From a virus (taxonomy: Duplodnaviria > Caudoviricetes): a stretch of 33,085 bases of DNA. Shown here piece by piece: positions 23,302-30,850 of this stretch (position 1 is its first letter; each line of letters begins with the position of its first letter). The stretch is from positions 1-33,085 of the IMG/VR virus record IMGVR_UViG_3300020044_009089; one strand, written 5' to 3'. The notes under the pieces were generated by a model. The model was not told the origin of the DNA. It was given only the letters and a program-made list of their open reading frames with translations, and ran no database searches. A program made the translations under genes and the position numbers.

Positions 23302-24474
23302 TTAATTACGTGCCACGATCCGGCTGCGAATTTTTGCCCCGTCCTGCCCCACCAGGTACGTGACCGCGTAGCGCGTGGCGTCTTGGGCGTGGTTCCAAAG
23401 GTCTACCGGCACGTTTAGGCTCTTGCCGTCCCGATCGGTGCGCCACCGGTAGTTCCGCGCCTCCTTGATCCAATTGGTGCTGCGCTTGGTCACCACCATG
23501 CGGCGTTGCAGCAGGGTGTCGATGCCGTTGCGCACGCTGTCGGCGCCCTTTTCAGCCGGCACCGCCCGAAGGCCTGCCAGGTTAAGCTCGGCAATTGTGC
23601 GCGGTTCGGCGCTGTCGCACACCAGGATGGCCTTGGCGGTTTCGGGGTCGGCCAGCAGGAAGCGGGCAAGGTCGGCGGTGGTGACGCCGGTGCGGTACAG
23701 CAGTTCGTCGATGTGCAGCACGCCGTCGCTCAGCCGCACGTCGACCACGGCGGTGGGGTCGTTGGTGAAGCCGAAGTCGATGCCGATACACCGGCGGGGG
23801 CTTGCCGGCATGCTGTCGCTGGTCACCCAGTTGGTATAGATTACGCCCTCAAGGTTGCCCACCTCGCCCTCGCCGTACACGCGCCACCAGTTGGGGTCGC
23901 GCTCTTTTCGGGCTTCGATGTCCGCCCGGATAGCGGGGTCGAGCTGGCCGTTGTCGCGGTAGGTGCTTTTGATAAAGACGGTGCGCGGGTCGGGCTCAGC
24001 CAGCAGGTGCTCATGCACCCAAAAAGAGGCCACGGGGTTGAAGTCCAAAAAGGTCGCCACCTTGGTACGCACCGCCAGCTCGTTAAAGGCGTCGAAGGTG
24101 ATGTTGTTGGCCTCGTTTATAAATAGCAGGTCACGGCGTGCGCCGCGTAGCTTGTGGGCTTGGTCAGCCGGGAAAAACTGCACCACGCTGCCAAGCACGT
24201 GCAGCTCGTTGGTGCTCTTGTTATGTATGTCCTCGCTGTACATGCCCTCGGCCCTCATTATGCCGATAAAGTCGCGCATGGCGCCGCGCTTGAGGTGTGG
24301 CAGGCTTTCGGCCACTACGCTGATGAGCAGGCCGGGGCGCTTGGCTGCGATTAGTAGCAGGAGCTGAAGGATGCTGTACGTTTTCGAGCTCGACGTGCCG
24401 CCTTGGTTTACTATGTAGCGGGCGCCGTCGCGGTAGGCCAGCAGGTTGCGCTTGAAAACGGCGGTGGGCTTCAA
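23302..24474 (-). CDS. terL: Terminase large subunit, PBSX/SPP1-like family (probable TTG start, about 390 aa)
   Basis: Walker A QGGTSSSKT; Walker B LLFINEAN; DFNP; nuclease motifs GIDFGFTNDP, CDSAEP and NHAQDATRY; TTGA overlap with the terS stop. Confidence 0.93.
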   Translation of the reverse strand: MKPTAVFKRNLLAYRDGARYIVNQGGTSSSKTYSILQLLLLIAAKRPGLLISVVAESLPHLKRGAMRDFIGIMRAEGMYSEDIHNKSTNELHVLGSVVQFFPADQAHKLRGARRDLLFINEANNITFDAFNELAVRTKVATFLDFNPVASFWVHEHLLAEPDPRTVFIKSTYRDNGQLDPAIRADIEARKERDPNWWRVYGEGEVGNLEGVIYTNWVTSDSMPASPRRCIGIDFGFTNDPTAVVDVRLSDGVLHIDELLYRTGVTTADLARFLLADPETAKAILVCDSAEPRTIAELNLAGLRAVPAEKGADSVRNGIDTLLQRRMVVTKRSTNWIKEARNYRWRTDRDGKSLNVPVDLWNHAQDATRYAVTYLVGQDGAKIRSRIVARN

Positions 24475-24932
24475 AGCTGGTCGATGGCTCCGGTGATGTC
24501 GGCGTCGGTGGTCACCACCCGGATGGCGATGGGGTTGCCGCCTCCGCTGATTTCGGTGCGCTCGACGTAGCCGCGCCCTTTGCCCTTGGTCTTGAGGTAA
24601 AAAATGGTGGCCGCGTCGCTGCCCTCGTTGATGCGCTGGTGCAGCTTGGTTTCGGCAAAGTCGAGCGCCACGTTTTGCAGCTCCTCGTATGCCGCCCGAA
24701 AAACGGGGTCTTTGCAATACTCGTAGAAGGTCGTGCGGTTGAGGCCGAGCTTGCGGCAGGCGGTGGTCACCACGCCCAGCGACTGCTCGAGCGCCTCAAG
24801 CATGGCCTTTTTGCGCACCTCAGCGGCAAGGGTTGACCGGTGCATGCGTGCCTCGGCAATGGTCGGCAGCTCCGGCTTTGTGTTGGCGGCCTTTTTACTG
24901 CGTGGGCTTTTGTTGGCTGGTTTCTTTGCCAT
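24471..24932 (-). CDS. terS: Terminase small subunit
   Basis: KKAMLEALEQSLGVVTTAC HTH and ATIFYLKTKGKGRGYVER motif; directly upstream of TerL. Confidence 0.85.
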   Translation of the reverse strand: MAKKPANKSPRSKKAANTKPELPTIAEARMHRSTLAAEVRKKAMLEALEQSLGVVTTACRKLGLNRTTFYEYCKDPVFRAAYEELQNVALDFAETKLHQRINEGSDAATIFYLKTKGKGRGYVERTEISGGGNPIAIRVVTTDADITGAIDQL

Positions 24933-24934
24933 TT

Positions 24935-25678
24935 TTAGACCACATTTATTTGAGCGGCAGGGTCGGGCTGACCGCCACCTCCCGGCTGGATGCCGGGCGC
25001 ACTCCCTTGTGCTACTGCCGCATATTTACGTTCCTGCAAAGTTATTTTTTTTCCCTTGTACATGCCAGCATCGTGCTCATCAATTTTACAATAGGGTATG
25101 ATAGGTACATTTAATTTACATGATTTGTCAATCAAATAAACATATTTTAATTGCTTTCCTGCAAATGGTTTCCATTTCTTAAACTGACTGCTCAATTTTA
25201 GGTGGTGCGCTTGTATAACATGCATTGCTGCACCAGTTTTTGGATTAATTCTTAAAGCTGTATTATCCACAATGCTAACCAAAAAAAAACCGCTTGCCCT
25301 ATAAATAGTCCCGTCACCACATTGTGTGCCGTCTGCAAAGCTTACCACCCATTTTATATGAGGGGCATTTTTTTTGATTAATTTTAAGGTTATTGCTATC
25401 ACACGACTTTCTGAATTTTTTGGCAAATAATTATCAAAAGCCATGCGATTTAATTCTATAAATTCATTCCAACGGGTGCCTTCAATTAAATTGATAGTCC
25501 CCTTTTTGTTTATGCTTGGCCCATAACTTAAAACACCGTGTAACCTATTGTCCAAAAAAGCACCAAAGTGTAAAACTGAGTTTGGCACTACTTTACCGCT
25601 GTAATGATGTTTTTTTACAAATTCATTTGCCAGCTTTGCCGGTATGACCTTTACGAGTATTTCTTTTGCTCTGCCCAT
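24935..25678 (-). CDS. Mom-family (GNAT-fold) DNA adenine modification enzyme
   Basis: FVKKHHYSG, IELNRM, NSESRVI and VVSFADGTQCGDGTIYRASGF motifs; in a ParB-modifier-terminase context. Confidence 0.8.
   Translation of the reverse strand: MGRAKEILVKVIPAKLANEFVKKHHYSGKVVPNSVLHFGAFLDNRLHGVLSYGPSINKKGTINLIEGTRWNEFIELNRMAFDNYLPKNSESRVIAITLKLIKKNAPHIKWVVSFADGTQCGDGTIYRASGFFLVSIVDNTALRINPKTGAAMHVIQAHHLKLSSQFKKWKPFAGKQLKYVYLIDKSCKLNVPIIPYCKIDEHDAGMYKGKKITLQERKYAAVAQGSAPGIQPGGGGQPDPAAQINVV
24953..25021 (-). tRNA. Degenerate tRNA-Gly(TCC)-like element inside the 3' end of the Mom-like gene
   Basis: GCGGCAG/CTGCCGC acceptor with U73; GCAC/GTGC D stem; CCCGG-CATCCAG-CCGGG anticodon arm; aberrant T arm GGCGG-TCAGC-CCGACC. 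Confidence 0.65.
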
Positions 25679-26268
25679 TGCATTATGATTAAATATAGTG
25701 CATTTCCATTGCTGTTTTCATTGCCCATGGTTTCAGCATATTTGTATTCCTCACTTTTCTTAATTTCAGCAAGTGCATTTTTTATAGTTGTGGCCTGCTC
25801 TGTGGCAAGGGTGAAAGTCATTTGCTCAAAGGGCGGTTTTTCACCTTCCGGCAGTAAAAAACCGTCTGATAAATTATTTGCATCAATTTCTATACCGGGC
25901 AAGTCAAGTCCCCACTCGGTCAGCTCAGCTGCGTCCCACTGGTTTGCCAGCACCTCCCAGTCCCACTCGCCGAAGCCCACGTTGTCTTTGATTATGAAGG
26001 CACGCTGCTGCTGCTCGGTTAGGTCTTTGGCGTACACCACCGGCACCTTGTCAAGGCCGGCGGCTTTGCAGGCTTGCAGGCGCATGTTGCCACCCAGCAC
26101 GGTGCCCTCGCTCGTTGCCACAATGGGTCGCAGCTCCAGCATCCATGGGTCGGCTTTGATTGAGGCCACCAGCTGCTTGAATTTTGCGTCTTTGATAAAG
26201 CGCGGGTTGGTGGGGTTTGGGTGCAGTTCGGTAATGGGCACCCACGTTGGGGTCGGTGGTGTTGTCAT
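25651..26268 (-). CDS. ParB/Sulfiredoxin N-terminal domain protein (partner of phage DNA modification enzymes)
   Basis: LHPNPTNPR, LRPIV, VLGGNMRLQAC and FIIKDNVGFGEWD motifs. Confidence 0.85.
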   Translation of the reverse strand: MTTPPTPTWVPITELHPNPTNPRFIKDAKFKQLVASIKADPWMLELRPIVATSEGTVLGGNMRLQACKAAGLDKVPVVYAKDLTEQQQRAFIIKDNVGFGEWDWEVLANQWDAAELTEWGLDLPGIEIDANNLSDGFLLPEGEKPPFEQMTFTLATEQATTIKNALAEIKKSEEYKYAETMGNENSNGNALYLIIMQWAEQKKYS

Positions 26269-30571: not shown

Positions 30572-30850
30572 TTACGTGTGTAGGTTGGTTTCGATGTACT
30601 TAATGACCTCGGCGTCGATTTCGGCGCGGTAGGGTGCCAGCTCGGCGGTGCAAATATATTGCCCGCTTAATGTTTCGGCGCTTTCGATGGCATAGCACCA
30701 GCTCAGCACGGTGTCGCAGGTCGGCATGCCGGTGGGTGGTGCCCAGTCAGCCGAGCGGGTCACGTCCCACGTGAGGTTGGCCCTCACCCACACCGCGCCG
30801 GTGGCGGTGTGGATGACTAGGCTGATCGCTTCAGAAGGGCGCGTTGTCAT
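30572..30850 (-). CDS. Hypothetical protein (start uncertain, 30850 or 30883)
   Basis: Fills the gap between ERF and the next gene. Confidence 0.55.
   Translation of the reverse strand: MTTRPSEAISLVIHTATGAVWVRANLTWDVTRSADWAPPTGMPTCDTVLSWCYAIESAETLSGQYICTAELAPYRAEIDAEVIKYIETNLHT

Follow-up and report, generated by a model that had tools for sequence, protein, structure and literature searches.

The virus record IMGVR_UViG_3300020044_009089 (Duplodnaviria; Caudoviricetes) has 33,085 bases, all of which were analysed and which we call the window, and it contains head and tail genes of the tailed-phage type. On the minus strand a ParB_N gene is followed by a gene of the Mom family of DNA-modifying enzymes and then by the terminase genes (Table 1). 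Here we describe an RNA of 69 nucleotides (nt) that resembles a tRNA-Gly and whose gene lies in the 3' end of the Mom gene. An earlier note, made from the sequence of the window, had proposed this RNA as a dedicated glycyl donor for the enzyme.

Table 1. Features of the Mom locus in the window.
Feature	Position	Strand	Remarks
tRNA-Gly(UCC)-like RNA gene	24953..25021	minus	positions 1-73, 69 nt; from fold and family alignment
Anticodon TCC	24988..24990	minus	C35 and C36 are glycine identity bases
Bulged A	24963	minus	3' strand of the T stem, between pair 50:64 and the next pair
Mom-family GNAT gene	24935..25678	minus	247 aa; PF25680 (E 7.6e-50), phrog_1384
ParB_N-domain partner gene	25651..26268	minus	overlaps the Mom start; PF02195 (E 3.3e-6)
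Terminase small subunit (terS)	24471..24932	minus	phrog_4044; next gene downstream of Mom; neighbour, outside the module
TAACTTTG, candidate internal promoter box	25037..25044	minus	23 nt before G1, inside Mom codons

The minimum-free-energy fold of 25021-24953 on the minus strand is a cloverleaf of -37.7 kcal/mol (z -2.91), with none of 200 shuffled sequences equally stable; sequence, coordinates and fold agree with the earlier description. As the opposite strand folds equally well (z -2.44), the strand assignment rests on family features and not on energy. The window RNA has a 7-base-pair (bp) acceptor beginning with G1-C2-G3, a 6-nt D loop and A33, and the glycine identity elements G1:C72, C2:G71, U73, C35 and C36 are all present. 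A canonical tRNA-Gly (Rfam: RF00005) shares the cloverleaf, the 7-bp acceptor and the glycine identity, but its contiguous 5-bp T stem, TTC loop and U33 are all missing from the window RNA. The claim that translation features have been lost stands for the missing TTC loop, for A33 and for the bulged T stem. It does not stand for the CCA, which is not encoded (the 3' flank, 24952-24950, reads CAA), because 9 of 16 host tRNA-Gly genes likewise lack it. The register of the T arm was corrected to a 4-bp stem with the 7-nt loop GUCAGCC, and a C32:G38 pair formed in the anticodon loop was added to the earlier description. ARAGORN reported no tRNA in the window, Rfam gave no tRNA match between 24500 and 26000 at E<=10, and seven homologous loci had 0 Rfam matches at gathering level.

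The open reading frame (ORF) had been called Mom-like, and its Pfam profile score of 169.8 bits, against a curated cut-off of 27.1, confirms this. The protein also matches the Mu Mom structure (PDB: 8bv8) with E 1.9e-22. Out of seven active-site residues checked against Mu, six are retained, with H58, Y59, R111, S124, D149 and Y159 of Mu aligned to H25, Y26, R78, S91, D116 and Y126 of the window protein. By profile and residues the enzyme belongs to the Mom family, and production of N6-carbamoylmethyl-adenine (6-NcmdA) is predicted. The conserved Mom core stops at about residue 218, and residues 220-242 are read-through of the RNA gene, which matches the claimed overlap with about 23 of the last codons. 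The terS start lies 20 nt past U73, also as claimed.

A conserved RNA family linked to Mom

A candidate cloverleaf lies close to the end of the Mom core in 79 of 80 viral loci with Mom homologues (58-83% identity). Alignment A1 comprises 55 of 60 distinct candidates plus the window, with seven strand calls corrected by hand. In A1, 98.1% of 1154 cells are paired and two-sided changes occur at 17 of 21 pairs; the covariation score is 0.805, compared with 0.256 after shuffling and at most 0.17 for slid partners. RNAalifold independently gave the same structure, including the 32:38 pair and the 4-bp T stem with the bulged A. Covariation is also found in the distant set (0.665 vs 0.171 shuffled) and in the D-armless set (0.725 vs 0.184). 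Furthermore, the covariance model matched 45 of 46 further viral loci, the 46th having a D-armless copy, and 16 of 21 prokaryote genome loci, where one match is a remnant. The prokaryote loci with the RNA are labelled Bacteroidota, Bacillota, Acidobacteriota, Pseudomonadota and others. A Mom query without the tail found the RNA in 75 of 80 metagenome loci, and two of the five misses are incomplete sequences. The viral, genome and metagenome locus sets behind these counts are redundant and related. The cloverleaf is a conserved and widespread RNA family.

Two measures were discarded. A result of 81 out of 81 from the full-length Mom query was rejected as biased, because the tail of the query protein is itself the RNA read through. 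The bit score of covariance model R1 was rejected as a classifier: the window RNA, which is included in the training set, scores 76.5 bits, but host tRNA-Gly genes reach 50-59 bits, so features were parsed instead. In the Mom tree the deep branches are unsure, and the rows L025, L033, L061 and L066 do carry the RNA. BLASTN of the element against cultured phages gave nothing significant. Of 150 distant Mom representatives (P0001-P0150), 43 have a GGxxPxxxL-like C-terminal tail, a translation of the T arm and acceptor that has leaked into Mom protein alignments.

Phages commonly carry tRNA fragments at attachment sites, and one degenerate remnant of the RNA was seen (L293), both of which would suit a decayed host tRNA gene or an integration-site remnant. 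However, the compensatory changes in all four stems together with the fixed bulge indicate selection on a structure that is not that of the host, and no integrase was found among 57 next-downstream ORFs scanned. Covariation largely refutes such an origin, whose probability we regard as negligible.

The RNA is linked to Mom, and not to terS or ParB. A DNA pattern of the RNA only retrieved 120 viral loci, and in 116 of these a Mom profile match ends beside the RNA; of the remaining four, the flanks are truncated in three, one of which still gives a weak Mom match. The linkage is not merely circular, since the Mom of 23 RNA-first loci belongs to a second clade that is about 30% identical and outside the training set. 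As a control, a canonical tRNA-Gly pattern gave 0 of 126 loci with Mom. In a second control, 80 loci were picked by the terS of the window; four have Mom and exactly the same four have the RNA, while ParB_N is present in 51, and the upstream flank is short in some of the 76 loci that lack Mom. Since these loci have the RNA solely where Mom is present, terS and ParB were rejected as the true partner. Downstream of the RNA the gene content differs between loci and includes several terS families, HNH, methyltransferase and unknowns. Whole-record searches, run with no positive control, gave no Mom match in four RNA-only contigs and no RNA match in five Mom-only records. RNAs that are 96-100% identical follow Mom enzymes that are 29-39% identical, which argues for a generic donor rather than a lock-and-key pair.

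Orientation separates the RNA from the protein. There are 228 distinct copies beside Mom, 150 sense and 78 antisense. The sense copies lie fully inside the Mom ORF (81), partly inside (44) or outside (25), and the 81 fully overlapped ones are spread over all three frames (59, 12 and 10). Conservation driven by the peptide was rejected on these grounds. The overlap with the Mom frame is incidental, a stop-codon accident, because the RNA behaves as a gene of its own. As the earlier note had predicted, the stems covary in the homologues, and G1-C2-G3, U73 and NCC are conserved while the overlapping peptide varies; in some homologues the peptide is missing altogether. The note's suggestion that excision of the RNA would truncate the Mom mRNA does not hold in general, as in many homologues the RNA runs antisense or does not lie in the ORF.

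The position inside the Mom ORF just ahead of terS, and the majority of sense copies, would fit a cis-acting mRNA element, either an RNase P site or a regulator of the Mom-terS transcript. Such an element is hard to combine with the 78 of 228 antisense copies, most with their own promoter-like motif, and with the tandem copies in L200, L380 and L654. Moreover, RNase P cleavage is not known to depend on glycine identity bases. We consider a cis element very unlikely.

The motif TAnnTTTG, which we take to be the Bacteroidota -7 promoter box, occurs at most 40 nt upstream of 54 out of 77 antisense copies (shuffled mean 5.9, maximum 13). At the place of TAACTTTG it is found in 16 of 71 sense-type and in 2 of 43 antisense-type homologues, a weak signal from rows that are not independent. 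A scan for sigma-70 promoters and terminators gave no excess over chance.

A putative glycyl donor for DNA modification

Features were parsed in 160 distinct copies, with one remnant dropped, and compared with the 16 tRNA-Gly genes of five genomes that carry such loci. G1C2G3 is present in 157 copies and U73 in 159. The anticodons are TCC (116), ACC (34) and CCC (10); the parser looked for CC, so the statement on C35 and C36 rests on A1, in which one of the two never varies and conservation of the other is at least 90%. The identity set for glycyl-tRNA synthetase (GlyRS), which includes C35 and C36 (PMC9976931), is therefore kept in the window RNA and across homologues, as the earlier note had claimed for the window.

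Features used in decoding are less constant. U33 is kept in 82 copies and lost in 78, the anticodon loop has 8 nt in 47, and the D-loop GG is missing from 80. A Watson-Crick 32:38 pair is formed in 157 of 160 copies compared with 7 of the 16 host genes, all of which have U33 and a canonical 5-bp T stem. In all 160 copies an A lies three bases from the T-arm end, and it is read as a bulge in 158; the bulged A is invariant in 55 of 55 rows of A1. EF-Tu reads the pairs 49-65, 50-64 and 51-63 (PMC3239215), and at the sequence level the bulge sits in this region of the T stem, hence it is predicted to be an EF-Tu anti-determinant. tRNA-Gly(ACC) is described as universally missing, phages included (PMC8007984). 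This pattern suggests that the features required by GlyRS and Mom are retained in the RNA and that those on which EF-Tu and the ribosome depend vary.

The Mom of phage Mu transfers glycine from Gly-tRNA-Gly to adenine N6 (PMC13219725), so the donor named in the earlier note is the one reported. Gly-tRNA-Ala is not accepted by Mu Mom, which probably recognises the acceptor end (PMC13219725). Against this background the RNA is likely a private, non-ribosomal glycine carrier for the adenine modification by Mom, a reading to which we give a probability of roughly 0.75. We infer every step of the path, from transcription to transfer. The RNA would be made late, as part of the ParB-Mom-terminase operon or from a promoter of its own; host RNase P and 3' nucleases would then trim it, and the host enzyme that adds CCA would complete it. 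Host GlyRS would charge it via G1:C72, C2:G71, G3:C70, U73, C35 and C36. The charged RNA is proposed to stay free for Mom for two reasons: the T-stem bulge would reduce its affinity for EF-Tu, and the anticodon loop, closed and lacking U33, would be unfit for decoding. Mom would then move the glycyl group to adenine N6, followed by rearrangement to 6-NcmdA as in Mu. The RNA is best regarded as an accessory supply and not an obligate subunit, because Mu Mom works with host tRNA-Gly and near-identical RNAs follow divergent Moms.

A broader proposal, which we favour with less assurance, is that phage tRNA-Gly mimics, a widespread and unannotated family whose members in some lineages are reduced to D-armless RNAs of 65 nt, form a ribosome-orthogonal glycyl carrier for DNA hypermodification. 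They would make up a two-part, protein-plus-RNA anti-restriction system, with the T-stem bulge as a new natural escape from EF-Tu.

The linkage to Mom would be explained equally well by a translational tRNA-Gly that refills the pool drained by Mom and sustains late protein synthesis. Many copies keep TTCGA, G18G19 and TCC, ARAGORN calls a tRNA at the equivalent place in some homologues, and the neighbour of Mom in phage Appa is near-canonical. However, bulged T stems (158/160), the loss of U33 (78/160), 8-nt loops, ACC anticodons and D-armless forms are ill-suited to the ribosome, and the window copy has neither U33 nor a TTC loop. Refilling is therefore an unlikely function.

Alternatively, the RNA might have no role as a donor and serve as a decoy or an uncleavable substitute where host defences target tRNA-Gly; such defences are acetylating GNAT toxins, alarmone-synthetase toxins and anticodon nucleases. 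The conserved U73 and G71 are also identity elements for the TacT toxin (PMC9976931), and the closed, variable anticodon loop could resist nucleases. Yet it is hard to see why a general decoy should adjoin Mom in 116 of 120 loci and be missing from all 76 terS loci that have no Mom, which makes a pure decoy distinctly unlikely. If the RNA is a donor, withstanding host attack may be a further advantage.

Several findings weigh against a dedicated glycyl donor. Any of the three E. coli tRNA-Gly isoacceptors can serve Mu Mom (PMC13219725), and among the 160 copies the TTC T loop is kept in 72 and the TCC anticodon in 116. In the tail-less set, 49 of 57 distinct elements are bulged, at positions that vary and not always with an A, and eight have canonical T stems; in Microbacterium phage Appa (NC_047972) a near-canonical, annotated tRNA-Gly(CCC) lies next to Mom. 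No copy was found beside Mom in Mu, GEC_PNG14, pAEv1818, PX29, PMBT69, phiSHEF2, TCUEAP3, Riggi, phiEf11, P12002L or a Bradyrhizobium plasmid, nor in 5 of the 21 prokaryote genome loci with Mom. Conversely, the 210-kb contig L144 has the RNA and no Mom within flanks of 1050 and 1800 nt. In the window enzyme the R151 that is essential in Mu aligns to Q119, beside a one-residue gap, and a nearby residue may substitute for it. Finally, the loci are related, so the counts overstate independent events.

Relation to known systems

Mu Mom belongs to the same enzyme family as the window Mom and has the same predicted glycyl-tRNA chemistry, but Mu carries no such RNA and scavenges host tRNA. The window is without the Com and C control genes of Mu and has a ParB_N partner upstream.

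A parallel in function is found in Staphylococcus aureus, where tRNA-Gly NP1-NP3 are non-proteinogenic donors for FemX/A/B; these tRNAs have lost EF-Tu determinants and gained an extra anticodon-loop pair (10.1101/2025.10.30.685614, PMC9976931, PMC3239215). As far as these sources describe them, they share with the phage RNA the kept glycine identity, an altered EF-Tu region, a closed anticodon loop and a consumer with the GNAT fold. In contrast, the phage RNA is phage-borne, gene-linked to its enzyme and directed at DNA rather than peptidoglycan; its T stem is bulged where NP species have weak pairs, its position 34 is free and some members are D-armless. NP species lose G18G19, which the window RNA retains.

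Allo-tRNAs and 8/4 tRNAs (PMC5389517) are likewise irregular cloverleafs of phages and bacteria with 4-bp T stems or a bulge, and some tRNAs of this type are reported to be charged yet unused in translation (PMC5389517). Those described in the source have a 12-bp acceptor branch (8/4 or 9/3) and a 5'-strand bulge at 51a, whereas the Mom-linked family has 7/4 or 7/5, a 3'-strand bulge, glycine identity and Mom as its neighbour.

The literature searched, with subscription journals outside its scope, describes no phage tRNA-Gly-like RNA tied to Mom. None is described in the Mom paper (PMC13219725), its preprint and one supplement, the main supplementary PDF and spreadsheet being outside the scope, and a term search of a jumbo-phage review (PMC7824862) found none. 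The records of Salinibacter phage B2_17 (OR896349) and Appa show the layout of tRNA-Gly beside Mom, annotated as an ordinary tRNA-Gly with no link to Mom noted. What is new is a real and widespread RNA family with a likely donor function for a known enzyme. If the donor role is true, this would be a virus-encoded tRNA dedicated to DNA modification and not to protein synthesis. It would also explain how Mom obtains Gly-tRNA-Gly in competition with EF-Tu, which the Mu paper, in its available parts, leaves to late expression. Orthogonal aminoacyl donors would then have useful scaffolds in natural tRNAs that can be charged but avoid the ribosome, down to about 65 nt. Cultured phages with such RNAs are Y8A, B2_17 and BarretLemon.

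Variants and gene neighbours

In ten copies the D arm is replaced by 11-12 nt and covariation persists. One example is the cultured Psychrobacter phage Y8A (OQ059336), where two tandem D-armless tRNA-Gly(CCC)-like genes with encoded CCA (L200:4662-4802) lie between an unannotated Mom and terS; a second mom gene is ORF69. The available part of the Y8A paper reports no tRNA genes (PMC10434257), an example of how tRNA finders miss a common phage RNA family. The annotated tRNA-Gly of B2_17 is a bulged family member. Arthrobacter phage BarretLemon has an unannotated, unbulged copy, in which A51-U63 and A33 are missing the usual context.

A gut lineage (L654-L700) has RNAs with 6-nt anticodon loops and with shifted bulges or canonical T stems, 60-230 nt past Mom and sometimes two in tandem. 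L526:196-262 is a short, D-arm-reduced tRNA-Gly(TCC)-like element with a bulged T stem near a canonical tRNA-Gly, on a flank too short for Mom. The element of L144 (L144:1051-1123) is a bulged family member beside a leucine-rich-repeat-like ORF of 497 aa. In L091, L116, L122 and L143 two tandem Mom-family matches precede a single RNA, and in L091 and L116 the upstream gene likewise belongs to PF25680. A partial antisense tRNA-Gly-like stretch (anticodon and T arm) lies between the Mom stop and the full element in L039, L040 and L052.

The GC content within the window is 0.60 in the N-terminal part of the ParB gene, 0.38 in its C-terminal part, 0.35 in Mom and 0.74 in the RNA. The closest relatives of the RNA adjoin Moms that are just 58-66% alike, whereas the closest Mom relative is 82% alike. 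This mismatch and the GC contrast suggest that one Mom cassette likely replaced another ahead of a resident RNA. The C-terminal domain of the ParB_N protein (25651-25899), with a GC content as low as that of Mom, travels with Mom in 39 of 60 RNA-first loci compared with 1 of 80 terS loci (tblastn) and is a possible Mom helper domain.

On the minus strand of the window TAnnTTTG occurs at 30658, 26694, 25044, 23293, 22535, 21087, 12775, 8408, 2292, 667 and 215. Several of these motifs are close to gene starts, which hints at a Bacteroidota host.
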